A stretch of 64,000 nt of DNA from the IMG/VR virus record IMGVR_UViG_3300009370_001603, positions 58,519-122,518 of that record. One strand, 5' to 3'. The translations under genes were made by a program, and so were the position numbers. How positions within the stretch are numbered: position 1 is the first letter of the stretch; each line of letters begins with the position of its first letter. Positions 1-37,454 of this stretch are shown here, piece by piece. This stretch comes from a virus. The notes beneath the pieces are model-generated. The model had not been told where the DNA came from, ran no database searches, and worked only from the letters and a program-made list of their open reading frames with translations.

Positions 1-3000
1 CAATAAGGTTCTTTTTTCTTCGTATATAAGCTTACGACTAACCTTGGGCCTTTATAGTGATCTTGGTAAGCGTGTTTATGTTCATTGCAAAGATGGAAGG
101 TGGTCGGTTTGCACTCTGGCCATTGAATGTCATTATCGGCTCTGTGTTCAAGGACAGTTTCGACAACCAAGGCCTTGTCTTTAAAGTTGTACCCAATAGG
201 CAGACTCTTAGTTATTCTCTTAGCTACAGAGTGGAAGTTGTCCGACGTGTCGCTTAGGTGGAACCGCAAGAAGTCATTTTCGATTTGGGTGTGATAGGAA
301 ACGCCGCTACTAATCGTCGAGGGCCAAGAGTTCAACGATAGAGAGCTTTGATTCTCATATGGAATGCCGCTATGTTTCAGGTGGAAACTAATTAAATCTT
401 TTCCAGCCCTTTTTGTCCAATGGCTAAAGGCAGAGCTAAATGCATGAGTCTTGAAGTCACCTAACGCCCAGTCTGCTTGAGTATCTTCGTTTACGTAGTC
501 CCAGAGCTTGTACGTATCGTTACTGCTAGGCTCTCCCGGCTCAAAGAACTTAACCCTATGATTTTCCAAGAACTTCTGAGCTGTGACCTGTTTGTATGTC
601 GCGTCAGCATTGGTTTCTACAATGTTGGTTCCTGAGCCATATACGCCACTATTCCAAGTAGAGATTCCAAATTCGGTCAGTAGCATATTCATTCCAACGC
701 CAGAACCGTCAGAGTGACCAACGATTAAATTTGCACTATTAGTATGCTTTGTAAACTTACTAGAAGATGCTCTAAGTGTAGTCCAAACGCCGGAGTGGAA
801 TTCATTATCAGTATATAGTTTTAGCTTCTCGCTCTCATGATCATTATATGTGAGTATAACAGACAGTGGGTATTGATATCCGCTATACTTTACAGTGTCT
901 TGAACAGAGACCAATGTTCCGTCTGTGGCTTTAGCGTAACCGCATAAGTAGCCGTCTTTATAACCAAGGGCGAAATCCATGTCTGATGGCGTAGTCCATT
1001 TAGAGAAAAGTACGCCAGAGCTAAATAAATCATAAGTTGTTCCCGACACATCTATATCTGGTGTGAATCTCGTGAAGATAGAGAATCCTCCAGAGGCGTC
1101 AATATTACCAAAATTAACGTTCTGATTATGGCCAGATATTCTTACAACGTTATCAAGAGCATCGGCAATCATACCATATAATTCATGGTCTTCAAAATTG
1201 TGTGCCGGGGAGGTGGAAGACAATGCCGTCCAGTCTGTTGTTTTGTAGCTACTGGTGTGATTAGGTGCTTTTGTACTAAATATATTCTGAGTCTTAAATC
1301 TCCACCCGACATTCTTGTAAATCTCAGGCGTGGAATTAAATAGTCCACTTACTCCACCAAAGCCTGCTCCCAGCGATCTAGATTGAACATATTTTCCATC
1401 CATGTAGTCAAAGTTATAGAAACCGGACAGAAGGGGGAATTCAAGTAAAGGATTATAAAATCCAAAGCCAAACGCATCAGTATCGTATGGACCCTGAACG
1501 GTCCCCTCTAACCCCCTCCACCTTCTAGAGTAATTAGATTTAATGCTAGAGGGGGTGCTATAGGCATGTGGAATATTAGTTATAGTTGAAAGCGGGCCAT
1601 ATCCAGAACCGGCATTTATTATGCTGTCATTACCCTGCTTTGTGGACGGGAAGATTTTACCTTCAGATCTTCCGTCTTGTATTTTATCAAAACACTCTCC
1701 ACCCTGAATCTCAAGTTGTAGCGCGGCCTGTGGGGCATATCTAACCAGTAGATGGGCGCTGGCAATAGCGGCTCCGCTGGGGAGTGGGTATATGTCTAAA
1801 TACAAATGTTCAAGCATAGAGCTGACATTGTAATTTCTGGAAAGCCCGATCTCTACATCATCTTTGTATACCTTTAGTGGTACTTCATAGTCAGCAAAAT
1901 CTGTTGTATTAACTATTGGATATCTTGTCAGGGAATAATGGTCTCCCCCTAAGTTGCCGCTTGTCTCTAAATATTTTTCCCTCTCAGATATACTTCTGGT
2001 AGATAACGCTAAATCGTCATCGTTGTCATAGTATCCAGATATAACAGGGTGAGTGCCCTCGCTGGTTATGATCTCCCCATTAATCTGGACTGATGACGGG
2101 TTCTGTAAAAATCCGCTTGGAGCTTTTGTGATATTGAGGAGTTTGTCGTCGCTCCACCCAACAATGTCTAGCACATAGTCTCGGGAATCTGCTGCCTTCT
2201 TTGCCTTTACCTTTAGTGTAATAGACTCTATGGCCAAGAAGTTATTATCAAATCCAGCTTCAACTTTTCTTTCTGTTTGAAATGCTCCGCTCGGGTGGAA
2301 CCAAATTGGGCAAGTGTTTTGATCAAACTCGCACCCAAATGCTCCCCGCCTGATCTCATTAACAGGCCCGTGGCCATAGCCAAACTTTACAATCATCTTG
2401 CCAGAATCAAAATGAGGCCCAGTACTGTGCAGCTCGGCATAATCTAAGGTAGAATCAGTCTGCAATGCCTTGACAATCTGTTCAGAACCACATGTGTCCA
2501 AGTTATTACCAAGAATGCTAGAACTACCATCGTACATTGGCTTGTTCTTATGCTGCCACACACTACTTACTGCTGGGAAAATTCCACTATTACTTGCGTC
2601 AGCTAAGGCAAAGAACGACGGTAAGATTTTCTTTTCCAGTCTTCTCCCGTTTCGCGGAGTGTCTAGAAAGAGATTAAAATAGTCCTCTCGTCTTGGTCCA
2701 GTGTATGAACTCAGCCAGTCCCCACCGCTGTTACAAATTTCTATAGCAGAGATTCTTATGCTTTTAGTTGGATTAATTAAAGACTGGCCTTGCGTTGATA
2801 GCGGAGCACCGTCCAATGCTAGGTAATCATCATCATCCGCAACGGTCGTGTGCATTACATAGTCTTCTTCAAACCCTTCGTCAAATCCGGGGTCAAACGC
2901 ATCGTCTCTCGGTGTAACCTTTACCTCGAAAGAGAGTTGATAACCAGTGATTTGATGTGTGTGCGGTTGGTCACGACGCTCCCAGTCATACTGGTCTGCA

Positions 3001-4220
3001 AACTTATTTGTAATTGGTTTTAAAGAATATGTAGCATAGTTAACAAGAGTTTTATCGTTACTATAGTCTACATCGCCAAGAATGTTTATATCTTCATACT
3101 GAACCATCGCGTTCCCGGATGGGTCGGAAAAGGTAACGTTCTTAATCGTATAAAGCGGGGCTATTTTGGATTCATAGTTAGCCATCGGGGCAGATGCTCT
3201 AATCCGCAGTCTTGTCTGATCCGGCCTAATGTGGAAATCAGTTAACTCACTCTTGTACTGGAAATTGCCCTCAGTATGGTAGCCACTGGGGTGAATAAAA
3301 GAATTGGCGTCGTCGGCCAAAAGGACGCTTTGGCTAAAGGGGGTGTGATAATCCCCGGTAAAAACACCCTCATCTATAAATGTATAAAGATTTTGTTTTT
3401 CATTGGACGGACCAACGAACTGTTGCATCCCGGAATCAAGATCTAGATCTCCGCTAGGATAAAGCTTTTCTACGCATTTATAATCACCAAAGCTCCCGGC
3501 GAACTTGTCGAGATACGTTGGCATCAACGAGGAGGAAGTTTCAGCCTTCTGTTTGATGCTATAACTAGCGGTCATAACGCCGCTTGCGATCTCCCCGATA
3601 GCTGTGAGACCCGCGAGCATCCCGACTCTTCCGGATATCTTACCGTTAATCCCTGCTATACCATCTAATTCGGACTTTACCCCACGCGCCACTATCATGA
3701 TGGGGTTAGACTGTGTTGTGTATTTTAGAGTTGCTATACAGGTATACCCAACCAATGAGTCGCAAATGTTTATTGGCGAAGGGTCGTTTACATCTTGATC
3801 TAATGAGTATTCTATGTCAAGAATATTTACCTTAACACCATTGGATAGGGTCTTCAATCCAATATATTCGTATACAATGTACTCGTAGGCCCCACTATCA
3901 TTTGTTAGTACAACGGTGTCGCCAATTAATGGGGGTGCCGCTTCAAATGTTTCGGACAGAATTACATAAATTCTATATATTGGCCCCTTTGAGTCAACTT
4001 CAAGGTTGGAACCGGGAGGGGGTGTTACGCGATAGCGGAACTCTTTGTCAACTACGCTTTTTGGAGAAGATAGCTTTCCATAGCCATAGGATCTAGAAGT
4101 TCTTAGGTTAGATGTGCCACTCATCTTAGCTTTAAAAACGCCACCTTGCGCGTCCACATTCTTAGCCGTGGCGTCTTTTACGCATAAGCACTCTAAGTTC
4201 TTGACATTTATATGCGACAT
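1..4220 (-). CDS. Large tail/virion protein with LamG (concanavalin A-like) domain; 3' end runs off the window (>=1406 aa)
   Basis: ATG at 4220 (MSHINVKNLECLC). The frame is open where I translated it (4220-3870, ~1120-650, 60-3) and is absent from the ORF track, consistent with no stop inside the window. LamG-like stretch VNFGNIDASGGFSIFTRFTP..GVLFSKW..FALGY..LKLYTD..LIVG. Lies directly downstream of the tape measure. Confidence 0.75.
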   Translation of the reverse strand, partial: MSHINVKNLECLCVKDATAKNVDAQGGVFKAKMSGTSNLRTSRSYGYGKLSSPKSVVDKEFRYRVTPPPGSNLEVDSKGPIYRIYVILSETFEAAPPLIGDTVVLTNDSGAYEYIVYEYIGLKTLSNGVKVNILDIEYSLDQDVNDPSPINICDSLVGYTCIATLKYTTQSNPIMIVARGVKSELDGIAGINGKISGRVGMLAGLTAIGEIASGVMTASYSIKQKAETSSSLMPTYLDKFAGSFGDYKCVEKLYPSGDLDLDSGMQQFVGPSNEKQNLYTFIDEGVFTGDYHTPFSQSVLLADDANSFIHPSGYHTEGNFQYKSELTDFHIRPDQTRLRIRASAPMANYESKIAPLYTIKNVTFSDPSGNAMVQYEDINILGDVDYSNDKTLVNYATYSLKPITNKFADQYDWERRDQPHTHQITGYQLSFEVKVTPRDDAFDPGFDEGFEEDYVMHTTVADDDDYLALDGAPLSTQGQSLINPTKSIRISAIEICNSGGDWLSSYTGPRREDYFNLFLDTPRNGRRLEKKILPSFFALADASNSGIFPAVSSVWQHKNKPMYDGSSSILGNNLDTCGSEQIVKALQTDSTLDYAELHSTGPHFDSGKMIVKFGYGHGPVNEIRRGAFGCEFDQNTCPIWFHPSGAFQTERKVEAGFDNNFLAIESITLKVKAKKAADSRDYVLDIVGWSDDKLLNITKAPSGFLQNPSSVQINGEIITSEGTHPVISGYYDNDDDLALSTRSISEREKYLETSGNLGGDHYSLTRYPIVNTTDFADYEVPLKVYKDDVEIGLSRNYNVSSMLEHLYLDIYPLPSGAAIASAHLLVRYAPQAALQLEIQGGECFDKIQDGRSEGKIFPSTKQGNDSIINAGSGYGPLSTITNIPHAYSTPSSIKSNYSRRWRGLEGTVQGPYDTDAFGFGFYNPLLEFPLLSGFYNFDYMDGKYVQSRSLGAGFGGVSGLFNSTPEIYKNVGWRFKTQNIFSTKAPNHTSSYKTTDWTALSSTSPAHNFEDHELYGMIADALDNVVRISGHNQNVNFGNIDASGGFSIFTRFTPDIDVSGTTYDLFSSGVLFSKWTTPSDMDFALGYKDGYLCGYAKATDGTLVSVQDTVKYSGYQYPLSVILTYNDHESEKLKLYTDNEFHSGVWTTLRASSSKFTKHTNSANLIVGHSDGSGVGMNMLLTEFGISTWNSGVYGSGTNIVETNADATYKQVTAQKFLENHRVKFFEPGEPSSNDTYKLWDYVNEDTQADWALGDFKTHAFSSAFSHWTKRAGKDLISFHLKHSGIPYENQSSLSLNSWPSTISSGVSYHTQIENDFLRFHLSDTSDNFHSVAKRITKSLPIGYNFKDKALVVETVLEHRADNDIQWPECKPTTFHLCNEHKHAYQDHYKGPRLVVSLYTKKKEPY

Positions 4221-4238: not shown

Positions 4239-7200
4239 CTACGAAGGCAACGTTGATTCAGAACGCGCGCTACCACCGCCCTCGGTGTTTTTCCATTTTG
4301 GAATTTCCTGAGCGACAGCATCTAGGGTAGCACTCATTATTTTTTCATCTATAACCTTTAATATGTTATCATTAAGAAGTCTTACGTTTACATCTACTGG
4401 CTTATTGACCGTTACACCAATTTCCATCTTACCCAGTGATGTTACAGCGTCTGAGAATCCGTCAAATATGGATCTAAGGTCGCCAACGGTTTCAACAAAT
4501 CCGCCCATCTGCTTGACCATATCTCCAAACTGATAGTATCCCACGGTGCCTCCTGAAGACATGGCGGCAGCGCCAGCTGGCCCAGCGTTCACAGTAGACC
4601 CATTACCATTCATGGCCCTCAAGAGTTGTAGGTTATTACCACGCTGCACCGCTGCTCTGTTAACGACAAACTCTCCGGGAGTCAACATGGCGGGTACAGT
4701 ATCTGTGCCTCTTGGTACGAATATACCTCTACTTGCGTATACCATTCCCCCTTTAGATAGTGGTAAACCCGCATCGGCGCGTTCTTGCTTTTTACCGGCC
4801 CGTTCCATCTCTTCTTTAAATTTAATCTCGGCTCGTTCAATCGTAAGCTCTGCGTTGGCAATTTCCATCATGGCACTATCTGCCATCATCTGGCTGACCT
4901 GACCACCGGCGGCGGCGAGCGCTTGCCCTTTATTTCTTAACGCATTTAGTTCCTCTGTAGTTCCTGTTAGTACTTGTCCAGCTCTTTCATCTAAGCCAAC
5001 GGACGAAGCAGCAATTTCACCTGCACGCTGTAGCGTTGCCGTATCTGCACCCTCTGCTTTCAACAGCTTAATCCCCTCCGCCATAGCCTGCGGACTAAAC
5101 ATTCCAGCCATTTCAGCATCGCCAGTTCTTAGGGCGGATGCTGCTCCGGCTGCGGCCTGTTGATCTAAAAAGCCACCTATGTCTCCACTGAGTAATTTAT
5201 CAATAGAAGATTGTTCTAATGAATTTCTCTTCTCGATAATCGCTATTTGATCTTTAGTCGCCTGAATTTGTGCCTGAATAAATCCAACCAAGTCTTTCAT
5301 TGACTGATTGGTTTCTTTAATCCTGTCAGCGTCTATACCTTGAGTATCCTGAAATCCACCAGTGGCCCTATCAATTTGCTGCTGGTTCATACGGCTTTGA
5401 ATATTAGATGCTACGCTTTGTATATCAGCCACGCTACCAGTTCTTAGTTGCTGAACTCCAGCGTCTTTAGCCCCAAGATTAAACTTAGCTAAGTTGGCAG
5501 AAAGCTTTTGATCTGCGGTTAATTTAGCGCCACCAAATTCTTCAAACGTTTTAGCGAACTGTAGTTGTGCATCAATAGCCTGTCTTTGTACCGCTATGTA
5601 TTGAAGTTCTGCCTGTCTTCTTATCGTTGTTAGCTTTGTTATTGTTTGCTCGTGTTTCAATAACGCCTTGGCTGCCTTTAGGGCGCCGTCCCTCATCGGT
5701 CCCAAGCCCTTAGTTATCTCAGCAATCAACGCGGAGGCATCTTTACCTCTAATGTCGCCCATCGCAGCGATTTGTCCCTGTATGGACGCTCTGATATCAG
5801 CATCTTTAACCCCGGCTAATAGGGCAGATTCTAATGATTGCTTTGCGGCGGCTTCAGTGCCCTGATTAAGATCCAAGTTACTAACGCGGCTCTGTACAGA
5901 TGCCATAAATTTATTTGCGGCATCGGCTCTAGAGAACTGACGATTTACAGCTTTACCTTGAGCTGTTGTTTCATCGCCACCAGCCGCAACTTTTATTATC
6001 CGTTGCCTTATACTCTCTAGCGCAGCAGACCCTTCACCGCCCATACCCATATTTGATGAGGCAGTCTCAACTGTGGCAATGGAATCTGCCAGTGTGGAAG
6101 AGCCGGTTTTTAGCGAATTTAAGAATTGGTCAACACCAAGATTTGCTTTATTAAATGCAGACATTACTTTGAGATTATCAAAGTTAGCCTTGGCTAAAGC
6201 TCTTTGAGCTTCTGCAACATTAAAGGCTGTTCTGGCCATTCGCTCAAGTTGATCTTTAGTATAGGCAGTCTTGTTACCCAAAGAGGCAAGGCCTTTCTGG
6301 AGATCTGCCATTGAGCCTGCCGTTGAGCCGAGCGATGTAACGAATTTCTTTTCGCCCTCTTTGAGGCTCTTCTCAACTTCCATTCGTGTTTTTTCGTCAG
6401 CTTTAACGCCACTCTTTGTCGTCTTGTCGAGTTCGGCTAGGGCATCTCTGGAAGAACTTCCAATGACCTCACCAAGCTGGCTCATGTCTGTGACTTTGCC
6501 CTCATCCAAGGCCTGAAAAGCCAGTTCATTACGGACGCGAGCGCCTTCGCCAGCTGCTCGGGCGCCCTTGTTTTGTACATCTTGGGCCATACGTTTCCGC
6601 ATCCCCTCGGGGTCTTGGAACATTTCTATCATTCCGCCTAGCGTAAACATTCGGCCCATTCCTTCGGCCACAGCGCCCGCTCTGGCGTGTTTGGCTGCCC
6701 CCGAAACATCACCCTTACCAACAGCTTGCTCAGACTTTCTTTGGGAAATCTCCGAAAGTGCGCTCGCAAGCATTTGGGCCGCCATTCCGGCCATCATCCC
6801 TACGCCACCAATCCCGGACCCCATGCTCATGGCTCGGCCACCCATCCTTCTCCCCAAGCCGGGGCCACCGGCGCCGCCGCCGCCCATGCCAGCCATCTTC
6901 ATCCGCTTCATGTCTTTAGTAACCTTCTTGACGGCCATGTCGGCGCCTAGGGTTTCTTTTTTGAGCCTGCTAGTGTTTCGAGTCAGATGTTGTGTTGTTA
7001 CGGTCGCCCTTCTCTTGGTCGAAGCCCCGAGATTTTCGGCATTGGCCTGCGCCATGATCTCCTTTTTCTGCCTCCGGGCGGCTCGGCCAGACTTAGTCAT
7101 CCAGCCAGTGAGCGCTGAGAATGTGCGGGAGAGCACAGAACTCTCTTTCCCTGCTTGTCTAGCTGTGATACTGTTTATTTGTTGAGTGCGATTCAGATTC

Positions 7201-10200
7201 CTTTGTCTGCCCTCCAGTATTCTGGTGGATTGAACAAGCCGCTTCCCTGCGGTAGTTACTTTATCAAAGAGTCCAGCCTGTTTTGTTTGAAGATTGGATA
7301 ACTTCCTTTGTGAACCCGCCAGCTTGTTGTTGGCAGAATCGCTCTTCCTCTTCGTCCTGTCTAACTTAACATCACTCGCCTTCACCTTTTCATTTGCTTG
7401 GACTAACTTGCTGGCAGTGGTTATCCTCGTTTTCGTGGCTTTATCAATCCGAGCATCACTCTTTGCGAATGCAGCCGCAAGGTCTTTATTGGCACCCTGA
7501 ACATCTTTTACTTTTTTATTAGCTTTTGTTAACTCTTTAGTCGCGCCCCTCTGGACTTGCTTTGATTTCCTTAGAGCTTTAGCTGCATCAACCGTCTTTT
7601 TCTTTTGGTCTGCGGTGGCCTTTGAATTTTTATTCCTTGCATTCTTTAGTTCGTGCTCTCTCTGTTCAAGCTTATTGATTGACGCCTCGGTTTTTTTGCG
7701 TTCATCGGACCCCTTCTCTTGGGTCATGGCCTTTTTCTCTAAGTTTTGCCTGTTCTCCTTATGCCCCGCTAGATCTTTATCTATCTTCGCATTCTTCTTC
7801 GCTTCGCTTGCTTCCGCACCTTCAAGCAAGTTCTTTTCTTTGTTGAGCTTGCCTTGGTCTTTTCTCACTTGCTCGTCCGCCGCCGTTTTGTCGAGTCCTG
7901 CTCGTGCTGATTCGCCCGATGCCGCCATACTCTCTTTGTCAGTGTTTATTTGTTGTTCTTTGAGTGATTCCCTCTCGGCGTGAGCCGATTTTTGTTCAGC
8001 CGCCGCCGCATTATCATCAGTCTGTGCGGTTATTCGCTCATTGTGCGCATCTTGATTCATTTCCCGTTCTACATCGAGATCTTTTTTCTTCTGATCGGCG
8101 TTGGCTTGCTTACCAGCGACCTCCTCTTTTTGAGTGTCAATAGCCGTCTGCCCCGCCGACTCTGCTTCTTGAGCAGCTTTAAACTCTTCTTTGGAAGCCG
8201 CCTGTTGATTCTCTGCTCTTTCAAGTTTTTTCTGCTCTTTAGCTTCTTTTGCCGCACCTTCCTTCAGCTTTGCGTCTTGTTCTGCTTCAGCTTGCGCTTT
8301 GGCTGATTGGGAAGGCTTCTGCTCTTCAGCATCCACCTTGGCGTCCTTCTTGGCTTCTCCCGCATCCTTCTTGTCTTCTGCCGCCTCCTTCTTGGTTTCG
8401 CCATCTTCCGATCCACCCTCTTCCTTCCCTTTTCCTGCTGCTATCTCCCGACCTTTCTCTATACCCTTCATCGTCAGCATGAACACCACTCCAGCCGACA
8501 TTAGTAGTTGACTGGCTTTTTCACCAGCAACGGCCATTGCGAATTGTGAGTCAGTAGCTTCTTTAGACTTATCTCCTAAGTTCTGGAGAGCGGTCGATGC
8601 CGCTCCAGCAATAATTGAGAGATTCATCAGGCCCATACCGCCGCCGCCGCCGACACCCCCGCCTCCTGCGAACTTCTGAATACCAACTGCGCCACCGGCG
8701 TTAAATCCAGTAACGCCTCTTTTGTTCATTCGGTTAAGACTCGCGTAACCAATGCGTTGGGCAGATTTTTTATTAACTACAAATTCGCCCGGAGTAAGAA
8801 GGGCGGGTACGGTGTCTCTACCAGATATGCCACCACCGCCAGCTTTCTTTTTGGGTGAGGCCAAGCCACTAGCGTAGAATTCATCGGCAATTTGATTCGC
8901 AACTTTGGTCCTAAAGTTAGCCTTGCTCGCTTCTTTATAGCTAGTCTTGGCGTCAACCCAAGATCCGGGGAGGCCAGAGAAGTTATCAGCTAGGGCGCCG
9001 CCAATACCGCCGGGGAAATCAAATGGAGAGCTAACTTGATCTGCTCTAAATTTACCCTTACCATCTAAAACAGAAACCGCCGCCTCAAACGCATTGCCCA
9101 TTGGTGCTCCGCGTTTTGCCATGTGGCCAATAAACTCTTGCTTAGAAGCGTCGTCTAATTTTTGAGCACCTATACCAAGGTCTGCACCAAGTGCCGCCGT
9201 AGCATGATCTAATCCCACAGCCATTCCATCGAGAATGTTTTTCTTAAAGCTATCAGAAGTTTTCTTGTTTAATCCTTTTCTGGTGAGTGAGTATTTTCTA
9301 CCATTGAAGAATTGACTGAGGTTCTTTTGTGCTAACTTGTCTGCTTTTAATCTTCTATTGTTCTTAACGTTTGCTTGACTAATATTTCCAAGATCTACCT
9401 TGCTCTTCTCTGGCTCGTCTGGATCTAAGATGGCGGCACCGACCCTTGTGGTGCCAACAATACCGCCAGCAGCAAATTTCCCAATTCTGAGTCTACCCTT
9501 TTTATCGAGGGCTTTAGCTAGTACCTTGTCTTTGCCTGCTGCTTTTTTCGACGCGGCAGTTAACTGAACAGGTGTTATGTCTTGGTATAGCCACGCTTGA
9601 CCTAAATCAAATTTATTGGCCGCGTCAGTTAGTCTAGCTTCGGTCAGCTTGGGCACAACTTTTCTGTCGATACTACTCATGGGGCTGAGAGCCGCCCCGA
9701 TCATCTTATCGCCAATGTTCTTTTCTAGATCTCTTGCTGATTGTTTCTCATAACTCTTGATTTCTACCAGTTTGTTGCCATCCATAGCATCCATTCTTGA
9801 GCTACCACCGGCGGTTTTTGCTATACCGAGGGAATTCAGCAAACCTTCAAATGCTAAACCTCTTGCTTGGTGTTTCCTATTAGCGGCTAGCTTTTGGTAT
9901 TTATTGAATTTCGCCGTCAGGCCTTTGTCTGCCTCTATTCTCTTTTTGTACTGATTAAGATTAATGCCTCTTTTCTGTAGGTCTAGCGAGAATGAATCGT
10001 CTTCATTGAATCTGGTGGCTCCGGAACCTCTGACTGGGGCCGTGTTGAATTTCTTGCCTTTACCTTTATAGAAGGTTTCATCTTCATATTTTACATAGCC
10101 CTTTGAAGAGGGAAAACTAGAAACCTGTCCACCAGCAGCATATTTGTTCATGCCTGCAAGCCGTCCAGCACCAAGCTTTCTAACGCTACTCTTGCGTATT

Positions 10201-11648
10201 ACAAACTCTCCCGGCTGAAGCATTGCGGGAACAGTGTCACGATTACCTGTGCCGGGAACCATGCCACCCCTAGCCATTGCCATAACCCTTCCACCCTCAG
10301 CTTTGGCGGAAAGACCTTTGAGTGCTCCTGCGGCCCCCTTGCCGAACGAAGACATGGCGCCAGCAAACTTAAATGCGGCAAAAGCACCAATTAGGGGTAT
10401 CAATGGTTTTAGAGCTTCGCCAACTTTGATTAATGCACTAGCTAAGTTCAGCGCGGTTTTAACCATCACCTGAAAAGAGGTGGTTTCAGTAAGACCACGA
10501 ACCAAGGCAAGAAATTCTTCTTTGGTCTTTTGTATTTGTACGGCTAAGGCCTGCTGTGCAGTAGCGGCATCTTTATCAAGACTTGAAGCTCCAGCTATAG
10601 CTGCCTGTCTAGCCCTCTCTGCCAATTCAAATTCTTGCAGTAAGGGAATGACCTTACCAATCTGTCGGAAGCCACCAAGCTGTTCAGCGATCTGAATAAA
10701 CTTTACATCGCCCGCTGGCACATCTCCAAGTGCCTTGCTCAATCTCTTTACGGCCTCCATCGGGCCTACAAAGTTACCCTGCATATCAGTAAGGCTAATA
10801 CCTAACTCTTTTAGGTACTGAAGGGTAGTTGGTCTCTGAATACGTGTAAGAATGGTACGTAAACCAGTAGCAATAGACTCTGCGCTTTCACGAGTCGTTG
10901 CACGAATAGATGTGAACAAACCTAAGAATTCATTCAGGTCGCCACCAGCGGCTTTAAAGACACCACCAGTACGGCGAATAGCGCCAATAAGGTCTCCGGA
11001 CTCAACGGCAAACTGTCCAGCAACAGCATTAATGGCACCAAGCTGCTCTTTTAGTTTACCAACACCTTGGCCAAACTGGGCTAAAATGGCAACAGCGCCT
11101 TCAGCCGTCTTGTTGATATCCTCAAATGTAGGAGCAAGGGTGGTCTTAGCCAGAGCTTCTAACGCAACTTTCAGATCAGTAGCTTGAATACCAGCTTGAG
11201 CTAGAATTCTAGTAGCATTCAGTAACTCTTTAGAAGAAGTACCTAGAGATACAGAGAGATTGGTAATCTCCTTACTAAGCCCTTTAAGATCTTTTACGCT
11301 CTTGCCGGTAACCTGCGAGATTTTTACAAGTTCTCGCTGAAAGTCAATCGCTTCATCAACGGCGCCCGCGATAGTGTTAGTAAAAAGACTAACGGCCCTA
11401 CTGGCAACAGTAAAGGCGGCAAACCTCTTTAGGGCTAACCCAAAAGATCTACCCATATCTTGAGCGGCACCCGCCGCTTCCTTGGTAGCGGTAGTGACCT
11501 GCTTGATTTGCTTAGTTGCTTTTGAGGCACCGGTAACCTTAACAGGTACAGACAAACCCTTGAGCTGTGACCTCATTTGGTTCACAACTTGGCTGGTGTT
11601 GGTCGGTGCCTGTAGTTTTAACTGTGCAGTCAGTACAAATTTAGACAT
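4239..11648 (-). CDS. Tail tape measure protein (TP901-family N-terminal core) with inserted domains
   Basis: 2469 aa, Ala/Gly/Lys-rich and helical. TP901-like core (AIDFQRELVKISQVTG..ILAQAG..TRESAESIATGLRTILTRI). Three DTVPA(M/L)LxPGEFV motifs. Lies downstream of tail tube and chaperone-like genes. Confidence 0.93.
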   Translation of the reverse strand: MSKFVLTAQLKLQAPTNTSQVVNQMRSQLKGLSVPVKVTGASKATKQIKQVTTATKEAAGAAQDMGRSFGLALKRFAAFTVASRAVSLFTNTIAGAVDEAIDFQRELVKISQVTGKSVKDLKGLSKEITNLSVSLGTSSKELLNATRILAQAGIQATDLKVALEALAKTTLAPTFEDINKTAEGAVAILAQFGQGVGKLKEQLGAINAVAGQFAVESGDLIGAIRRTGGVFKAAGGDLNEFLGLFTSIRATTRESAESIATGLRTILTRIQRPTTLQYLKELGISLTDMQGNFVGPMEAVKRLSKALGDVPAGDVKFIQIAEQLGGFRQIGKVIPLLQEFELAERARQAAIAGASSLDKDAATAQQALAVQIQKTKEEFLALVRGLTETTSFQVMVKTALNLASALIKVGEALKPLIPLIGAFAAFKFAGAMSSFGKGAAGALKGLSAKAEGGRVMAMARGGMVPGTGNRDTVPAMLQPGEFVIRKSSVRKLGAGRLAGMNKYAAGGQVSSFPSSKGYVKYEDETFYKGKGKKFNTAPVRGSGATRFNEDDSFSLDLQKRGINLNQYKKRIEADKGLTAKFNKYQKLAANRKHQARGLAFEGLLNSLGIAKTAGGSSRMDAMDGNKLVEIKSYEKQSARDLEKNIGDKMIGAALSPMSSIDRKVVPKLTEARLTDAANKFDLGQAWLYQDITPVQLTAASKKAAGKDKVLAKALDKKGRLRIGKFAAGGIVGTTRVGAAILDPDEPEKSKVDLGNISQANVKNNRRLKADKLAQKNLSQFFNGRKYSLTRKGLNKKTSDSFKKNILDGMAVGLDHATAALGADLGIGAQKLDDASKQEFIGHMAKRGAPMGNAFEAAVSVLDGKGKFRADQVSSPFDFPGGIGGALADNFSGLPGSWVDAKTSYKEASKANFRTKVANQIADEFYASGLASPKKKAGGGGISGRDTVPALLTPGEFVVNKKSAQRIGYASLNRMNKRGVTGFNAGGAVGIQKFAGGGGVGGGGGMGLMNLSIIAGAASTALQNLGDKSKEATDSQFAMAVAGEKASQLLMSAGVVFMLTMKGIEKGREIAAGKGKEEGGSEDGETKKEAAEDKKDAGEAKKDAKVDAEEQKPSQSAKAQAEAEQDAKLKEGAAKEAKEQKKLERAENQQAASKEEFKAAQEAESAGQTAIDTQKEEVAGKQANADQKKKDLDVEREMNQDAHNERITAQTDDNAAAAEQKSAHAERESLKEQQINTDKESMAASGESARAGLDKTAADEQVRKDQGKLNKEKNLLEGAEASEAKKNAKIDKDLAGHKENRQNLEKKAMTQEKGSDERKKTEASINKLEQREHELKNARNKNSKATADQKKKTVDAAKALRKSKQVQRGATKELTKANKKVKDVQGANKDLAAAFAKSDARIDKATKTRITTASKLVQANEKVKASDVKLDRTKRKSDSANNKLAGSQRKLSNLQTKQAGLFDKVTTAGKRLVQSTRILEGRQRNLNRTQQINSITARQAGKESSVLSRTFSALTGWMTKSGRAARRQKKEIMAQANAENLGASTKRRATVTTQHLTRNTSRLKKETLGADMAVKKVTKDMKRMKMAGMGGGGAGGPGLGRRMGGRAMSMGSGIGGVGMMAGMAAQMLASALSEISQRKSEQAVGKGDVSGAAKHARAGAVAEGMGRMFTLGGMIEMFQDPEGMRKRMAQDVQNKGARAAGEGARVRNELAFQALDEGKVTDMSQLGEVIGSSSRDALAELDKTTKSGVKADEKTRMEVEKSLKEGEKKFVTSLGSTAGSMADLQKGLASLGNKTAYTKDQLERMARTAFNVAEAQRALAKANFDNLKVMSAFNKANLGVDQFLNSLKTGSSTLADSIATVETASSNMGMGGEGSAALESIRQRIIKVAAGGDETTAQGKAVNRQFSRADAANKFMASVQSRVSNLDLNQGTEAAAKQSLESALLAGVKDADIRASIQGQIAAMGDIRGKDASALIAEITKGLGPMRDGALKAAKALLKHEQTITKLTTIRRQAELQYIAVQRQAIDAQLQFAKTFEEFGGAKLTADQKLSANLAKFNLGAKDAGVQQLRTGSVADIQSVASNIQSRMNQQQIDRATGGFQDTQGIDADRIKETNQSMKDLVGFIQAQIQATKDQIAIIEKRNSLEQSSIDKLLSGDIGGFLDQQAAAGAASALRTGDAEMAGMFSPQAMAEGIKLLKAEGADTATLQRAGEIAASSVGLDERAGQVLTGTTEELNALRNKGQALAAAGGQVSQMMADSAMMEIANAELTIERAEIKFKEEMERAGKKQERADAGLPLSKGGMVYASRGIFVPRGTDTVPAMLTPGEFVVNRAAVQRGNNLQLLRAMNGNGSTVNAGPAGAAAMSSGGTVGYYQFGDMVKQMGGFVETVGDLRSIFDGFSDAVTSLGKMEIGVTVNKPVDVNVRLLNDNILKVIDEKIMSATLDAVAQEIPKWKNTEGGGSARSESTLPS

Positions 11649-17728: not shown

Positions 17729-20700
17729 TTACCACGCATTGAATGTATCAACCATTTTTCGCCACTGTCCGTTTAAGTAAGTAGCGAGATTATAATTACT
17801 TCCACTCTTTACTATACAAACCGTACCTTCTACTCGTGAAATCTCATATTTAGCAATAGTGCTGCTCGAATGCGTATACAACTGTCTAGTAGCACCGGTG
17901 CCGGTGGTATTTAAAGCTATGGGGAGCTGTAGGAAACCTTCAGCATTAACAATCGTGTTTGCAAAGTCATACTCATCGGTGGATGCCTGTATTTGGTCGG
18001 CAACCTGATAAGAGCTATACATCGTTGTCTTCAGGCCTGTTTTATCAGTTGAATGGTTTGCCAGTTTTAAAAGGTGGGCACTGAACTCTGCGGCAGTGGT
18101 CGGTTTTTTCCCGATCTGCGTTACCGCATTTGTATTGTGCTGGAAGAAACCCTTTCCGATAGCAACGACGTAATCTTCAGGTGAGGTACTAACCCACGAC
18201 GTGTTGTTCGTAGGTGTGTCGTTGTTAAGCACAATCGCACGATTTAATACCTGACCGCCACCAGCGTTGTAGCCGATGAGAGTATTATAAGCACCACATC
18301 CCGATATTCCAGCCTGATAGCCTATCATGATATTATTGCTGTGGACTGTGCTTGAAATTCTACCGTTGTACTGCTTACCGGCCTCGACCCCAATACTAAT
18401 TTGACGGGCAATCCCGCTAGAATAAGACCCTGCTTCCATGCCAATGCCAATATGCCTATTATATGATGAAGTCGAATCCTTGCCTTGAGCATGTCTCCCG
18501 GCATAGGGGCCGACGTATGTCGAATAATGCTGCCTATTCGCTTCCTCACCAGCTTTGTAGCCAATGACTGTAGCTTTTTCAGTTGTGGCCAGTAAGTATC
18601 CAGCCATGTGGCCCAGCATAGACGTTTCTTTATTACCGGAGGAATAAGCTCCAGCTCCATATCCTAGAAGCTGATTGTTAGATGCATTGTAGCTGTCTTT
18701 TCCTGCAAAGTAGCCAATCGCCACGTCGTTCCAGCTTCCATCCAGAGTGTCGGCCATACCGCTCGCGTTCTGCAATGCCTGCCTTCCGATTCCTACACAC
18801 CTATTCAGACCACTGGCTTGCTGGCCCGCAGTTTGGCCAATGAAAACGTTACCCTGTGTAAGTGATCCACGCTGATGACCCATATAGCCTTGCATAGACT
18901 CCCTGCCGATAGCTATATTTTCACTCATCCCATGGCTAGATTCACCAGCCTTGTAGCCCAACATAATATTATGCTTGTCTAGTACAGCAGATCGACCAGC
19001 ATAGTAGCCTATCGCAACGCTGTGTACCAGCGAGGAATCGAAAGTATACTGATAGGTTGTCCACCCTGACGACGATACGCCAGCTCCATAGCCAATATTA
19101 ACACCCCTGATCCCAGAGGAACCCATACCGGCTTCGTATCCTAGGTTGACAGAGCCGCCCATCCATGCGGAATCTTTCAAACTCCTTGTTCCTATAGCAA
19201 CCGCGTCCGTGTTCCCACTAGAGCTATAACCCGCGAGCGCACCAATGAAATTACCCTGTGTCGCCTTAAAGGAGTACGCACCAGCAGAATGACCGATGAA
19301 GTTAACAATGCCGCTACTTGGTACAGACCCCCCCATGCCAGATTGGGCAACGGCTTGGTATCCAGCTTCACGACCAATGATATTTGAGGATGCAAAACCA
19401 TGCGCTCCGGAACCAGCATAGTCACCGATAAAGTTGGTGTGGTTTGCACCTAAGACTTCTGCGGCAGCATATCTACCCATAGCATTACTATTGTTAATGC
19501 CGCTGCCATATAGTCCTGCTCGATTACCAATCATGTTGGTGTTAGAGCAGCCACTTGCGACACGTCCAGCATGGATACCTATAAAGTTAGAATTATCACA
19601 GCCGCTCGACTGTAAGCCAGCATCTCTCCCTATAAAGTTAGAGCTTTCAGAGTCGGCGTTGATATATGCTCCGGCGCGAGAGCCAACGGCCACAACGTAA
19701 CTATTACCACTAGAAGATGTTCCGGCGTTCGTTCCTATAAAGATACTTTGAATATTACCGCTAGAACTTTGGGCAGCTCCGCTACCAACCGCAATGGACG
19801 CATGACTTCCTCCGAGGGCATTGTGACCCGCAAGCCTTCCGATTGCCATTGCTCCGGAACCAATTGCTCCACTTACGGGACTAACGTCATCCGCCGTTCT
19901 AACTAAGCCGTCACTAAATGTAAGGGCGCTCGTATCAATACTACCCGCCGCAAAGCCAGAAACGGCTGCAATAGCTGTTTTTGATATTCCAGAAACGGCT
20001 GCTCCAGACGAATCTATCTCATACTGTAGATTGCCCGAAGCGAGGCCTGCACTAAAAATTAGGTGGTTACTTGAGGCTGTGTATTGGGTGGTAATACCAC
20101 TTATGCCAGAAATGTTAACGCCTTCTGAGCTACTAATATTGTCAAAATCTGTTAGGCCATCACTTAGTTTCCAGTGTCCATAACCGCCGCCTAAGCCGCC
20201 AATTTTATCGTTCACATACCCAGAGACTAAATTGACACCGACTTGTAATATACCAGAAGTTGCTTTATCGTGACCAAAAGCGAACCCAGAAACCGCAGTG
20301 ATTGCTGTGTTTGCTAAACCAGAGACTGCCGCGCCACTAGCATTTACAACCGCCTCAAGGCCGGAGGCGGAAAATTTCATTACATTTGAGCTTGAGTTGT
20401 ACCCAACGGTTACGTGGTCTACGCCGGAGAAATTAACTGTATTTGTAGAGGCTATAGCATCTGTACCACCCCCAACTCCAACTACCCAGTTGGCATAGTC
20501 AACAGCAGATCCAATTCTTCCATCAAGATATCCAGATAGTCCATTAGCAGTTACAGCAAATAGGTTGACATCGGAATGATATAATACTTCACACCCGCTA
20601 GCCCCGCTTATAAACACAGTATCTGCTGAGGATATAGTTTCGGGGGGATTCGTCGTGCCGTCACTAACCTTGAAAGAGTAATCTGTCGTATTGTCAATAC

Positions 20701-22630
20701 CATATTGAAGAATACCTGATAACTCAGAGGGGTCAAATATTATTCCCCCAGAAGGTGTAGTCGCTATGCCGCTTATGCCAACTGCAAGACCTCTTAGCCC
20801 ACTGAACGCAACCTCGGTGCCTTGGTGTATTTGGTGCGTGGTGTAGGCAAGTGTTGGATTAACATAGCCGGAAGAAATTGCTCCAACCTTAAACATGTTG
20901 CCAATCTGAAAAACTCTTCCGTCGTCAAGCGTTAGACCGCTTCCGCCCACATAAGCACCACTAACTACAGAGCTATCATTAAATATAAGGCCGCTAGTTG
21001 TAATGCCCAGCTTTTCATTATTAGATGTTGCGGCAGCCCATGTGTTCGAACCGCTTTTCCAAGTCCATTTTTTATCGCCAGTGTCTATAGCCCCATCGCC
21101 AGAGGATCTTATTACAACGCCTCCGTCATCAACAAGGTGGTCTACGCTGGAGGAAGAGTCATTGCCACTAGTAGAGGCTAGCTCCAACTGTTTGTCTTGA
21201 ATCGTAACATTCGTACTGTCATTATAGGTAGTGGTACCTTTAACAAAAAGATCACCACTGATTGTCACATCATTGCCAAAATAGGAATCTGTTCTGGCAA
21301 ATACGCCCCCGCTAGAATGTACATTGCTACCGTACGCAGTGTAAATATCTCCAGACGTAATAATATCGCCACTAACGCCAATGTTGCCGCCTCTAACGTC
21401 CAGTGAAAATATAGGGTCGTTCGCCCCAATGCCTACTCTGTTACTAGATTTTAAGAAAACAAACTTATCATCGTATGTGATAATGCCGCTTTCTTTATAG
21501 AGGGCTACGGAGCCAGCAGTAAGGGTGTCTGGATCTTCATCCATCGCCTTGTCTTGGACAACATATCGCGTGGAAAGATCGGGGATATCTTCTAGTTGTA
21601 AGTACCTAAAGGTTGGAACATCTGGGCTACAGCCAACCGCTTCGCATCCGCTCGGCGGACCGGAAAAAATCGTACCCTTCTCTTGTGGTAGGAAGCAAAA
21701 TCTTTCATCTACCACTCCGCTTAAAAAGAATACGGCATTTGTGCCGGTCGTACCATCTAACTCATTTCTAAAAAATGGCTCTAGCTGTGTGCCACCAGAG
21801 GCGGTTTTGGTTGCATCCTGCGGTAAGGCTTGGCCGCCAGAAAAGAGAACGCCAGAACCTCCATCAATAAAGCCAGAAGCCCTAACTTGAGAATAAGATC
21901 TAATACCCCCAATATCTATGGCATATTTAGGATCTGTTTGTGAGATACCAAGTCTAGCTCCAGAAACAGACCATAATATATTATCATCATAATTTAAAAG
22001 CTGTTCACTACCCCAAACCGCTAAACCGCTATTTTGTGGTTCCTTGAAGCCGCTTATGCCATAACCAGTAAATACTGAATATTTTCCGGGATAAGTTACG
22101 TAAACTTCTTTGATTCCAAAGTCTGGAAAATTAAACGGCTGCCCAGAGGCTACATAATCAACACCGCTAAGTCCGGCGTGAGAGGGTTCCGCATGGCCCG
22201 CATGGTTATTGGGCATGTAGAAGGTATTGCCATGATAGCCAGAGAAGGTATGTGTGTGAGCGCTGGTAGCTCCAGCGACTGCTAGTGCAGCAGACTTAGT
22301 TAAATACAGTGGGTGAAAATAACCTTGTTGCCCTCTTGTTGGGCCACTAGCGCTATCTCCATTTAAGTAGTAAGGGCCAGAATCTAAGGCAGAACTTCTT
22401 AATGGGAACCTTGTTAGCTCATTATCTGAGCCACTTTGTCTATATTCACCGGAACCCATCTCGTAATAGGTTCCATCGGTAGCAGCATAATAGACAACAT
22501 CTCCGTACTTGTAGAAATCACCAAAAGGGCTAAATCCAGCAAGCTCTCCGTCGAGAACAAACGGGTCTTGCCCCTTGGTGTGGGAAAGTTCTTTGATTCT
22601 GTCTGATAATACTACTATGTTGGAGTGCAT
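17729..22630 (-). CDS. Long fibre/adhesin with YadA-head-like (N-x-x-I-G-x-x-A-G) repeats
   Basis: 1633 aa with dozens of 14-aa-type repeats (SNFIGRDAG, TNMIGNRAG). N-terminal DRIKE module. RLGISQTDP/RVGIGANDP fibre motifs. Confidence 0.75.
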   Translation of the reverse strand: MHSNIVVLSDRIKELSHTKGQDPFVLDGELAGFSPFGDFYKYGDVVYYAATDGTYYEMGSGEYRQSGSDNELTRFPLRSSALDSGPYYLNGDSASGPTRGQQGYFHPLYLTKSAALAVAGATSAHTHTFSGYHGNTFYMPNNHAGHAEPSHAGLSGVDYVASGQPFNFPDFGIKEVYVTYPGKYSVFTGYGISGFKEPQNSGLAVWGSEQLLNYDDNILWSVSGARLGISQTDPKYAIDIGGIRSYSQVRASGFIDGGSGVLFSGGQALPQDATKTASGGTQLEPFFRNELDGTTGTNAVFFLSGVVDERFCFLPQEKGTIFSGPPSGCEAVGCSPDVPTFRYLQLEDIPDLSTRYVVQDKAMDEDPDTLTAGSVALYKESGIITYDDKFVFLKSSNRVGIGANDPIFSLDVRGGNIGVSGDIITSGDIYTAYGSNVHSSGGVFARTDSYFGNDVTISGDLFVKGTTTYNDSTNVTIQDKQLELASTSGNDSSSSVDHLVDDGGVVIRSSGDGAIDTGDKKWTWKSGSNTWAAATSNNEKLGITTSGLIFNDSSVVSGAYVGGSGLTLDDGRVFQIGNMFKVGAISSGYVNPTLAYTTHQIHQGTEVAFSGLRGLAVGISGIATTPSGGIIFDPSELSGILQYGIDNTTDYSFKVSDGTTNPPETISSADTVFISGASGCEVLYHSDVNLFAVTANGLSGYLDGRIGSAVDYANWVVGVGGGTDAIASTNTVNFSGVDHVTVGYNSSSNVMKFSASGLEAVVNASGAAVSGLANTAITAVSGFAFGHDKATSGILQVGVNLVSGYVNDKIGGLGGGYGHWKLSDGLTDFDNISSSEGVNISGISGITTQYTASSNHLIFSAGLASGNLQYEIDSSGAAVSGISKTAIAAVSGFAAGSIDTSALTFSDGLVRTADDVSPVSGAIGSGAMAIGRLAGHNALGGSHASIAVGSGAAQSSSGNIQSIFIGTNAGTSSSGNSYVVAVGSRAGAYINADSESSNFIGRDAGLQSSGCDNSNFIGIHAGRVASGCSNTNMIGNRAGLYGSGINNSNAMGRYAAAEVLGANHTNFIGDYAGSGAHGFASSNIIGREAGYQAVAQSGMGGSVPSSGIVNFIGHSAGAYSFKATQGNFIGALAGYSSSGNTDAVAIGTRSLKDSAWMGGSVNLGYEAGMGSSGIRGVNIGYGAGVSSSGWTTYQYTFDSSLVHSVAIGYYAGRSAVLDKHNIMLGYKAGESSHGMSENIAIGRESMQGYMGHQRGSLTQGNVFIGQTAGQQASGLNRCVGIGRQALQNASGMADTLDGSWNDVAIGYFAGKDSYNASNNQLLGYGAGAYSSGNKETSMLGHMAGYLLATTEKATVIGYKAGEEANRQHYSTYVGPYAGRHAQGKDSTSSYNRHIGIGMEAGSYSSGIARQISIGVEAGKQYNGRISSTVHSNNIMIGYQAGISGCGAYNTLIGYNAGGGQVLNRAIVLNNDTPTNNTSWVSTSPEDYVVAIGKGFFQHNTNAVTQIGKKPTTAAEFSAHLLKLANHSTDKTGLKTTMYSSYQVADQIQASTDEYDFANTIVNAEGFLQLPIALNTTGTGATRQLYTHSSSTIAKYEISRVEGTVCIVKSGSNYNLATYLNGQWRKMVDTFNAW

Positions 22631-27889: not shown

Positions 27890-28405
27890 TTACTCCACAA
27901 ACGCCATAAACGCACCACCCAAATCTCTAGTGAAGGTGTGGGGTGCCTTGCCGGGAGATCCTGAGCTACCCTCTCCATCTGGTAGGTCGCAAGGGGAATC
28001 GTCTCCACTACTAGCACTGTCCGTTATATATTTCACCCAGAGGGTTGTGTTGTTAACTCGTTTCACAACTTTGTAGGTATATATGGACTCCCAATTTTCA
28101 GCGTCTAAATCATACGGCTCCCCCAGTGCCACCTCCATTTTATAAGCAGTAACCCAATCGCCAACCATCACCGTTGCGTTGTTGGCGGCACTGTAGACCA
28201 CTTGGTAGATTGGGCCATTTGAATCGGTCTCATCGACTGATCCACCATGAATAGCTGAAGCGTCTTCTTGCCAGTCACCAAGCCCCTCTTCGGATTGATC
28301 AGCACTGGCAGAGCAGGAAGATATAGCTAAATCGGTAGCTACCGTTATCCTCTGCCTTCCGGTTGCTGAATATATAGGATCGTGTGGTACGGGATAATTT
28401 GGCAT
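27890..28405 (-). CDS. Hypothetical virion-associated protein
   Basis: 171 aa, TAATG coupling to the long fibre gene. Confidence 0.65.
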   Translation of the reverse strand: MPNYPVPHDPIYSATGRQRITVATDLAISSCSASADQSEEGLGDWQEDASAIHGGSVDETDSNGPIYQVVYSAANNATVMVGDWVTAYKMEVALGEPYDLDAENWESIYTYKVVKRVNNTTLWVKYITDSASSGDDSPCDLPDGEGSSGSPGKAPHTFTRDLGGAFMAFVE

Positions 28406-37400: not shown

Positions 37401-37436
37401 CGGCGTGACGCCATCACATTGACAACACTGTGTCAT
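34425..37436 (-). CDS. Cys-rich, Pro/Thr-linker protein with acidic Gly/Asp C-terminal repeats
   Basis: 1003 aa. GACC/GCC/GRCC/GSCC modules, PTT linkers, CG.C.W modules, C-terminal DTG.APD.GG repeats; no signal peptide. Confidence 0.8.
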   Translation of the reverse strand: MTQCCQCDGVTPPPPPTGACCYGTEGCPPSNCDSVISEGDCLVKPCSRFYRDKTCAQITCITTTPEPTTQPPVTTAPPTTQPPTTDPPDPELGCCLPGEDDVHTCVNLTRTQCEDLGGTALSKTCEDAGSLACVKCCCPPTLSIPIRVKTDCEDCVMDETDTFNGVGLGGDLCSDPITYSDEGTFDCGDDWRATVVCQSQMPETAWLRWNYEGETCYGLKGFGHGEAGNCDEIIDGITFQLPAPCDDISDDCLCCNTTEPPDPECPECLDPDLRGDLGCALNPQPGCPNMGPCITISSEGQKLECCNDDGTKVEIFCNDPVGCCCCCPEFFSPCTPCQAAGGTDCEDDGDCPDNAGCGGVSCCKPDGTDGGIIEGLDNCCVSCPDGYTRQPPGGCPGGGGGPDPDPDPEPTPGGTTTTSPPGGTTTTSPPGPLGRCCYCGEYGLTCSMFTEAECDDKDGYWDGGQTCSAGCDDVAEMHGLVCTEGTGTGGGDDPPEDGPSCGSCYWVKKLVDGVWYWKLPTEEEFATAYGSGWETQWANICAGNTDWENDKPGWPMRHPDEPENNGCKCPCPDRIIDDSLVSDQPWVVDGGAFFPSAGRGEEDWPEGYCGKIAPDYITGSEWKQVGCGDGSCCRRHWSWPTTWSDGSPFGDEHKTEENYWLRIMGDWECEDNIKEADCLGYCNDSEKWNHGKDGCESKWSEDNHNCERYSPESNASTVDGWMPCNDCSCPSSFSVVAKLKVIGSDDNNTCGFEETSYTGDDVSLYPKATMTAESAARYLLDGGQNGTYYYVTSQQRFTCGGKKNPDGSDFDGDTWKYSFTCNSQKPKSSADRWMGWLETCQGKYSRLQAQNPDATNLCFKPPVWEFEVPVTKTDCPCCITCGQCTWEHDASGGGWTLLSSDCADGCECDDPPENTDPSHHAHAVIHTATKPCVQGGGGGGDGGDDDDDTGEAPDPGGGDDDDADTGGAPDPGGDDGGDEDTGDAPDSGGDDGGDEGDPGGGYS

Positions 37437-37454
37437 TACAAACTCCTAGTATAA

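Follow-up and report, generated by a model that had tools for sequence, protein, structure and literature searches.

Tape measure proteins (TMPs) set the length of phage tails, form the entry channel and sometimes carry a cell-wall hydrolase; peptidoglycan-hydrolase motifs are, for example, present in the tape measures of mycobacteriophage TM4 and of staphylococcal phages. Here we analyse a giant TMP from the IMG/VR virus record IMGVR_UViG_3300009370_001603. The record is 122.5 kb long with an estimated completeness of 73%, and its final 64 kb (64,000 nucleotides) make up the stretch of DNA studied here, hereafter the window. The gene at 4239..11648 on the minus strand is assigned by sequence comparison to the tail TMP of an uncultured large tailed phage, and its product carries globular inserts in a slot between copies of a repeated module (Table 1). 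According to our analysis, the first insert (domain 1) is likely a divergent PD-(D/E)xK nuclease and the second (domain 2) a new fold found across the clade, both of which would be delivered at infection. We give this reading as a whole a probability of roughly 55%.

The closest described systems are the TMPs of phages lambda and T5, gpH and pb2, which are both cut during tail assembly (PMC12617516; bioRxiv 10.1101/2022.09.20.507954; what is said of these two sources refers to parts of each text). For gpH, neither the site nor the catalyst of cleavage is known according to that part of the source; gpHC remains bound to the hub protein, and gpH* is ejected and builds a trans-envelope channel (PMC12617516). 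T5 pb2 is cut between a hydrophobic stretch and a muralytic motif, and pb2C, which carries this motif, has been proposed to be expelled into the periplasm (bioRxiv 10.1101/2022.09.20.507954). A further group are the polyvalent proteins, very large virion-associated proteins with variable enzyme domains, including ADP-ribosyltransferases (ARTs) and nucleases, which are thought to be injected with the DNA and are suggested to be processed into units (Iyer et al., 2017; PMC5512222).

TMPs with enzyme domains have thus been described before, and ARTs and nucleases are known from giant polyvalent virion proteins (PMC5512222, whose main text contains neither "tape measure" nor "tape-measure"). The present locus brings in two domain families that no database curates and a module that is widespread yet likewise lacks a curated family. 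Literature searches on tape measures, effector or nuclease domains and polyvalent proteins, judged by titles and abstracts, turned up no account of nuclease-like or ART-like inserts in TMPs.

The tape measure protein and its relatives

The first-pass annotation of the window, made from the letters alone, had recognised a TMP with a TP901-type core, and the profile searches agree. The N-terminal 500 residues scanned alone matched PF10145 well above the curated cut-off (92.5 vs 33.2 bits), a match that the scan of the full-length protein missed, and residues 14-462 or more matched five PHROG tape-measure families. Hydrophobic stretches rich in Gly and Met lie near aa 1000-1060 and 1586-1640, and a long part of the protein is rich in K, E and A. 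All motifs quoted in the annotation were found in the translation at the positions given for them.

An exhaustive HMMER search of 1.84 billion representative proteins, with aa 503-938 as the query, returned 58 proteins at E<=0.001. All 42 matches of at least 1000 aa carry domain 1 and/or domain 2, and those shorter than 1000 aa resemble contig fragments. Together with the TMP of the window, the 42 form the set of 43 long proteins used below, a clade of giant TMPs that spans 1.0 to 5.5 thousand residues. The first module model found at least one copy of the module in 41 of the 42 long matches; a stricter second run misses two more. Seven relatives were scanned whole with Pfam, and PF10145 was above cut-off in five (P0039, P0007, P0028, P0016 and P0032); P0015 and P0003 gave no PF10145 match in these scans. 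Cultured phages and prophages did not extend the clade: tblastn of both domains against 50,697 cultured-phage records gave no match, and no prophage relative came up when 185,579 species genomes were scanned for a single peptide pattern from the domain 2 alignment, which, with only one pattern in use, is weak evidence of absence.

A repeated module bracketing a variable slot

The module comprises about 60 residues and reads GG-x-V..G.G..D-T-V-P-A-x-L-x-P-G-E-F-V...L..MN..[FY]AxGG. A hidden Markov model (HMM) derived from 134 copies among the relatives gives the consensus ..GG.V.KFA.GG.V...GTDTVPAMLTPGEFV..K.AV..IG.GNL..MN...FA.GG.V. The TMP of the window has three copies, and its relatives have between one and six where the module model matched. 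Short [FY]xxGG linkers accompany the inserts: of the 51 strong instances of domain 1 or domain 2 that the 43 long proteins contain, 45 have such a linker no more than 35 aa upstream, against a background expectation of about 11% per interval of that length. The first-pass annotation had placed two domains between repeated modules and AxGG linkers, and this arrangement is supported here; the linker count, and the residue conservation and substitution rates of the domains described below, show a pattern beyond chance.

The first two module copies bracket a slot for globular inserts, and the content of this slot varies among relatives. About 20 architecture strings occur among the 43 long proteins, so that the variation of cargo between linkers that the annotation had anticipated is indeed found. 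For the following counts a cleaner set of models was combined with extra models, and the slot was defined as the stretch after the first module. Domain 1 followed by domain 2, as in the order module, domain 1, domain 2, module, occurs in 7 of the 43. Between two modules, domain 1 stands alone in 5 and domain 2 alone in 6. A domain 2 paralogue (hhalign 95.6% to domain 2) followed by domain 2 fills the slot in 6, a divergent domain 1 (hhalign 96%) followed by domain 2 in 3, and domain 1 occurs twice in 2; the remaining long proteins carry other inserts (ART-like, domain Y or unassigned). Domain 2 is nearly constant, being present in 35 of the 43 and always right before a module, and several members of the clade lack domain 1 or domain 2.

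The ART-like insert is found at aa 947-1161 of P0032, where it covers positions 20-195 of the 196 of PF03496 at a score below cut-off (E 0.0025; 17.6 bits, cut-off 23.4), and at aa 580-805 of P0039, with 51% identity to that of P0032. It carries an STS-type string. A further insert of about 170 aa, unassigned to any family and termed domain Y (..VDDI..GGGAVDIDRT.KRT.GD.AY..), adjoins domain 2 in five sequences, namely the relatives P0033, P0034, P0049 and P0032 and locus L005 (nt 3536-4045), and sits in the slot before or after domain 2. By eye, the insert at aa 585-981 of P0030 shows a Walker-A-like GPAGSGKT and E..D..ExK strings, and a DGDTF...RLMGFDAYE string in P0016 (aa 507-680) and P0003 (aa 141-272) recalls staphylococcal nuclease, a likeness without Pfam support in the whole-protein scans.

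The module is also the feature that connects this clade with phage lambda. Residues 751-786 of gpH (VHRGEFVFTKEATSRIGVGNLYRLMRGYATGGYVGT) match the module HMM at 22 bits, aligning as GEFV..K.A...IG.GNL....YAxGG.V, and a FATGG..TGTGG stretch lies upstream of them, as in the TMP modules. We conclude from this alignment that the DTVPAxL module is homologous to gpH 751-786, which lies inside the cleaved C-terminal fragment of the lambda protein; a gpH fragment of 14 kDa would begin at about residue 710-725, which is 25-40 residues on the N-terminal side of the module. In both proteins the last module copy stands about 100-150 residues from the C-terminus (gpH has 853 aa), and glycine-rich and hydrophobic stretches adjoin the module. 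The two differ in that gpH has a single copy and, in the part of the source used, no enzyme (PMC12617516), and in that lambda has PF06791 and PF09718 whereas the core of the window's TMP is PF10145. Pfam covers only 54-256 and 627-701 of gpH, leaving the module stretch without a curated family.

By tblastn the module was detected in 52 phage records, mostly within tape-measure annotations, from phages of Gordonia, Clavibacter, Mycobacterium, Stenotrophomonas and Nitrincola. It was also seen in genes of T4-like cyanophages (e.g. Synechococcus phages S-SM2, Bellamy and S-SCSM1) annotated as hypothetical, "transmembrane protein" or, in one case, "lysozyme/endolysin", and in genes of Pelagibacter phages (e.g. 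HTVC103P/104P/115P) outside annotated tape measures. Because of these occurrences outside annotated tape measures, the module may mark ejected virion proteins more generally.

Domain 1, a probable PD-(D/E)xK domain

The alignment of domain 1 comprises 19 sequences of 23-41% identity, with one row at 93%, and G597, F600, E601, D620, E629 and K631 are invariant in all 19. In the AlphaFold2 model built from this alignment (predicted local distance difference test, pLDDT, 83.6; predicted template modelling score, pTM, 0.78), E601 lies on helix 91-104, D620 just before strand 119-121, and E629 and K631 on the hairpin partner strand 124-129, which is followed by two helices and then a long strand. 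A helix with a Glu, a strand with an Asp and a strand with ExK, in this order, form the canonical restriction-endonuclease core, and domain 1 has the PD-(D/E)xK order of residues, with the helix acid, the Asp at the second strand and ExK on the third. It shares the helix Glu, the Asp at the strand start and the hairpin to the E-x-K strand with PD-(D/E)xK nucleases such as the SfsA C-terminal domain, Tox-REase-7 and Holliday junction resolvases. In contrast to these, it was found only inside tape measures, and it elaborates on the core with its first ~90 residues and its C-terminal helices, neither of which has a counterpart in them. When stand-alone relatives of 96-482 aa were sought with a profile, a single weak match came up, with 7% query cover.

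The structure searches point in the same direction. Among the matches of domain 1 listed by Foldseek for the PDB, 13 of 45 are restriction enzymes (PvuII, OkrAI, EcoRII, Eco15I and an unnamed one), the arenavirus cap-snatching endonuclease/L protein, DdmD, DrdV and CdiA-CT nuclease toxins. For BFVD, a library of viral structures, 8 of the 50 listed are Cas4/DUF83, a RecU-type factor, Holliday junction resolvases, a restriction endonuclease, a PD-(D/E)XK domain and Lassa L. In the matches that Foldseek listed for domain 2, the internal control, restriction-type nucleases and nuclease toxins are absent. The best PDB sequence match to the domain 1 profile (hmmsearch) is SfsA, whose C-terminal half we take to be a member of the PD-(D/E)xK superfamily, with FE, SRxD and E-x-KS aligned. 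In the ESM Atlas the closest cluster is Tox-REase-7, with a score of 0.80 that counts as a lead only. Since these weak structure, profile and language-model matches consistently point to PD-(D/E)xK, domain 1 probably adopts this fold. That it is also an active nuclease is a more tentative proposal, with odds a little short of even; as such it would be a metal-dependent phosphodiesterase.

Compared with a 94%-identical relative on another contig (L002/L003), domain 1 has a ratio of nonsynonymous to synonymous substitution rates (dN/dS) of 0.17 at a synonymous divergence (dS) of about 0.25, which indicates purifying selection. A match of PF07951, the clostridial neurotoxin receptor-binding C-terminal domain, to residues 80-149 of the domain (9696-9905, minus strand) was judged spurious, being below threshold (17.1 bits, cut-off 25) and seen in only 1 of the 19 family members.

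Domain 2, a fold shared across the clade

In an alignment of 39 domain 2 sequences, G851, E855, D877 and G881 are invariant and F876, D899 and A900 nearly so, with D899 conserved in at least 90%. More distant relatives retain (D/E)-A-K in the forms TDAK and ETEAK. In the AlphaFold2 model, which is very confident (pLDDT 92.3; pTM 0.86), E855 belongs to a helix, D877 sits at an isolated beta bridge, and D899-A-K901 is part of the short strand 174-177; the motifs are separated by 20 inserted residues that include a helix, and the N-terminal strands supply most of the sheet. Foldseek found no fold match in the PDB (best E 1.2), and no match was found in PDB sequences, Pfam, NCBIfam, PHROGs or the ESM Atlas. 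With a dN/dS of 0.15 against the same 94%-identical relative, again at a dS of about 0.25, domain 2 is likewise under purifying selection. We consider it a fold not seen in the PDB, as far as the model can tell, and its status as a nuclease doubtful; that it is a PD-(D/E)xK domain is unlikely.

The first-pass annotation had described both inserts as PD-(D/E)xK nuclease-like domains in tandem. For domain 1 this holds as far as the canonical order and invariance of E, D and ExK and the weak matches go; for domain 2, which gave no nuclease signal, it goes too far, and neither domain has a significant fold match. The two are not recognisable duplicates either. BLASTP gave no match between them, on which ground a recent tandem duplication was rejected, and a profile-profile comparison aligned the three motifs with a probability of only 13.8% (P 0.002). 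They may share a distant core.

Proposed role at infection and alternative explanations

Assembled inside the tail lumen, the TMP would be the first to leave the virion when the tip opens, ahead of the DNA. As TMPs are ejected before the DNA in lambda and T5, domains 1 and 2 would reach the host at the first moment of infection, entering its envelope or cytoplasm before or together with the leading DNA end. As a metal-dependent phosphodiesterase, domain 1 could then attack host or competing DNA or RNA, or alternatively handle the nucleic-acid end at entry. By analogy with the described tape measures, delivery of the domains into the cell is plausible, and proteolytic release at the modules is conceivable, by analogy with lambda gpH and T5 pb2 only.

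Comparison with other carriers of enzymes shows where the locus would stand apart. T5 pb2 sets a precedent for a TMP-borne enzyme domain split off by cleavage; its enzyme is a C-terminal muralytic peptidase motif, as far as the part of the source used describes it, whereas in the window's TMP a triplicated module surrounds internal domains of nuclease-like or other type. The enzyme domains embedded in the TM4 and staphylococcal tape measures are likewise used at the entry step and differ in their wall-acting chemistry and in fold, domain 1 looking like a phosphodiesterase. The TMPs of our clade resemble polyvalent proteins in carrying several unrelated effector-type domains that vary between relatives, with virion delivery suggested by their identity as TMPs. 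They differ in the carrier, which here is a TMP of the tail lumen with no peptidase domain found, whereas polyvalent proteins are head-packaged or linked to MuF, DarB or N4-RNAP and use a Zn-metallopeptidase (MPTase) for processing (PMC5512222). Pfam scans of the TMP and of seven relatives found neither a MuF/portal-linked nor an MPTase domain, a point on which the clade departs from polyvalent proteins.

If our reading is true, a TMP with swappable enzymes of intracellular type would represent a second route of protein delivery at the start of infection, beside head-packaged polyvalent proteins, and host shut-off or counter-defence would be possible uses of such enzymes. Two domain families with clear candidate active sites would be gained. 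The link between the module and gpH also provides a concrete sequence element for the old question of gpH processing, as it is posed in the part of the source used (PMC12617516).

Several results weigh against a nuclease delivered in this way. Foldseek yielded no significant match (E<0.001) for domain 1, with a best E of 0.31 in the PDB and 0.10 in BFVD at template modelling scores of at most 0.25, and no family in Pfam, NCBIfam or PHROGs matched it. The SfsA match has an E of only 2, and hhalign of the domain 1 profile gave a probability of 0.7% with Escherichia coli SfsA and of 4.6% with a profile of low diversity made from at most 81 SfsA sequences of enterobacteria; shuffled proteins attain ESM scores in the range of 0.80 a third of the time. 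For domain 2, neither restriction-type nucleases nor nuclease toxins appear among the PDB matches listed, the sole nuclease being the Cas12p complex ranked 24th; in an alignment of 48 rows, 46 sequences extend over K901, and 6 of them have R in its place. If a nuclease without specificity travelled in front of the phage DNA, the phage itself would be at risk, and no match to the DNA-modification families PF00303 and PF01702 was found in the 122.5-kb record, which is an estimated 73% complete.

In a rival explanation the domains are structural or handling parts of the TMP and do not act on the host: they might grip the leading DNA end in the lumen like a "pilot", or dock to the tube, the terminator or chaperones, and their conserved acidic and basic residues would bind metal or DNA while leaving host nucleic acid intact. 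The near-constant presence of domain 2, always before a module, is that of a core part more than of swappable cargo; its tolerance of K to R, the finding of neither domain outside tape measures in the searches run, and the lambda DNA end that adjoins gpH* in the tube (PMC12617516, in the part used) all fit this explanation. We nevertheless regard it as unlikely: retention of the full E/D/ExK set in 19 of 19 domain 1 sequences across 23-41% identity is typical of catalysis, an enzyme-type domain, the ART-like insert, occupies the same slot in relatives, and the members that lack domain 1 or domain 2 indicate that neither is needed to build a tail. Action of the inserts on the envelope, with the E and D residues serving glycosidase- or peptidase-type catalysis on peptidoglycan or membrane, would match the enzymatic TMP domains described so far, which are cell-wall hydrolases such as T5 pb2C (PMC12617516; bioRxiv 10.1101/2022.09.20.507954, in the parts used), as well as the module in cyanophage genes annotated as lysozyme or endolysin. 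No search of either domain returned a lysozyme, transglycosylase or peptidase family or fold, and folds of these kinds are abundant in the PDB and normally easy matches for confident models, so that we hold an envelope target to be very improbable.

The protein might also be a polyprotein, cleaved at or next to every module or [FY]AxGG linker so that domains 1 and 2 are freed as effectors; cleavage at the linkers had been suggested in the first-pass annotation and would follow the example of the cleaved tape measures. The module is homologous to gpH 751-786, and the cut in gpH falls upstream of it, within the glycine-rich stretch; in T5 pb2 the cut divides the channel-forming part precisely from the enzyme domain (both according to the parts of the sources used). 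Linkers precede 45 of the 51 domain starts, and in two divergent relatives, L004 (TGA) and L008 (TAG), the frame stops at the second Gly of a linker. On the other side, the cleavage site and protease of lambda gpH are not known in the part of the source used (PMC12617516), and two prohead-protease families were not found in the 122.5-kb record, of which one, PF03420, matched no control genome either, so that its absence carries no weight. In the AlphaFold model, the linker at the N-terminus of domain 1 (residues 2-6 of the domain) lies in a beta strand, and it may therefore belong to the fold rather than form an exposed site. Such a cut at every module or linker is, by analogy, conceivable and rather improbable.

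A bolder extension of the proposed delivery of slot inserts takes the tail lumen as an effector-delivery channel, in which the multiplied gpH-type module is a cassette boundary, and possibly a signal for self- or assembly-linked cleavage, between whose copies interchangeable enzymes are fired before the genome. The cargo would comprise a restriction-fold nuclease, an ART-like domain, a P-loop domain and new folds. If true, the module would explain where and why lambda gpH is cut. We consider this extension, cargo included, speculative and on balance doubtful.

Table 1. Features of the TMP gene and its product, with residue numbers of the protein and nucleotide positions in the window.
Feature	Residues (aa)	Position (nt)	Strand	Remarks
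TMP gene		4239..11648	-	single open frame, 2469 codons, 2469-aa product
PhageMin_Tail (TP901-type) core	126-326	10671..11273	-	Pfam PF10145, E 4.1e-26, 92.5 bits, cut-off 33.2
Module copy 1	449-513	10110..10304	-	module HMM; GG..ARGG..DTVPAMLQPGEFV..L..MNKYAAGG
KAEGG	from 449	10304-10290	-	motif position
MARGG	from 458		-	motif position
DTVPAMLQPGEFV	471-483	10238-10200	-	motif position
YAAGG linker	503-507	10142-10128	-	motif position
Domain 1, PD-(D/E)xK-like	503-729	9462..10142	-	candidate site E601, D620, E629, K631; alignment, AlphaFold2 model
RGLAFEGLL	from 596		-	domain 1 motif
SRMD	from 617		-	domain 1 motif
LVEIKS	from 627		-	domain 1 motif
FAAGG linker	725-729	9476-9462	-	motif position
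Domain 2	725-938	8835..9476	-	conserved E855, F876-D877, D899-A-K901; alignment, AlphaFold2 model
MGNAFEAAV	from 850		-	domain 2 motif
SPFD	from 874		-	domain 2 motif
WVDAKT	from 897		-	domain 2 motif
Module copy 2	934-991	8676..8849	-	module HMM; with DTVPALLTPGEFV and FNAGG, KFAGGGG after
DTVPALLTPGEFV	945-957	8816-8778	-	motif position
FNAGG	from 982		-	motif position
FAGGG	from 993		-	motif position
Module copy 3	2298-2359	4572..4757	-	module HMM; 110 aa before the C-terminus
Third DTVPA[ML]L module motif	2316-2328	4703-4665	-	motif position

Stops in linkers and neighbouring genes

The frames of the divergent relatives L004 and L008 (~1,235 and 2,120 codons) are each interrupted by one in-frame stop. 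In L004 this is a lone TGA at nt 3303-3305 (KYKTG*RV), and in L008 a lone TAG at nt 3680-3682 (FKAG*VISG) with a GTG immediately after. In both, the [FY]xxGG linker that follows module 1 has the stop exactly where its second Gly stands in the family. A split gene, read-through or recoding could be behind these stops; TGA is read as Gly in genetic code table 25.

Profile searches of the 122.5-kb record gave no match to PF04586 or PF03749, and the eight smaller open reading frames (ORFs) upstream of the TMP gene matched no PHROG or Pfam family above cut-off. The phage lineage of the window is very poorly charted. Further giant ORFs, all on the minus strand, lie at 3..4220, 17729..22630, 28405..33174 and 34425..40082, with lengths of more than 1406, 1633, 1589, 1003 and 875 aa. 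Two of the giant ORFs were scanned: that of more than 1406 aa gave no family match, and only the 1633-aa ORF, 6 kb upstream of the TMP gene in gene order, had one, a weak match to a tail-spike PHROG.

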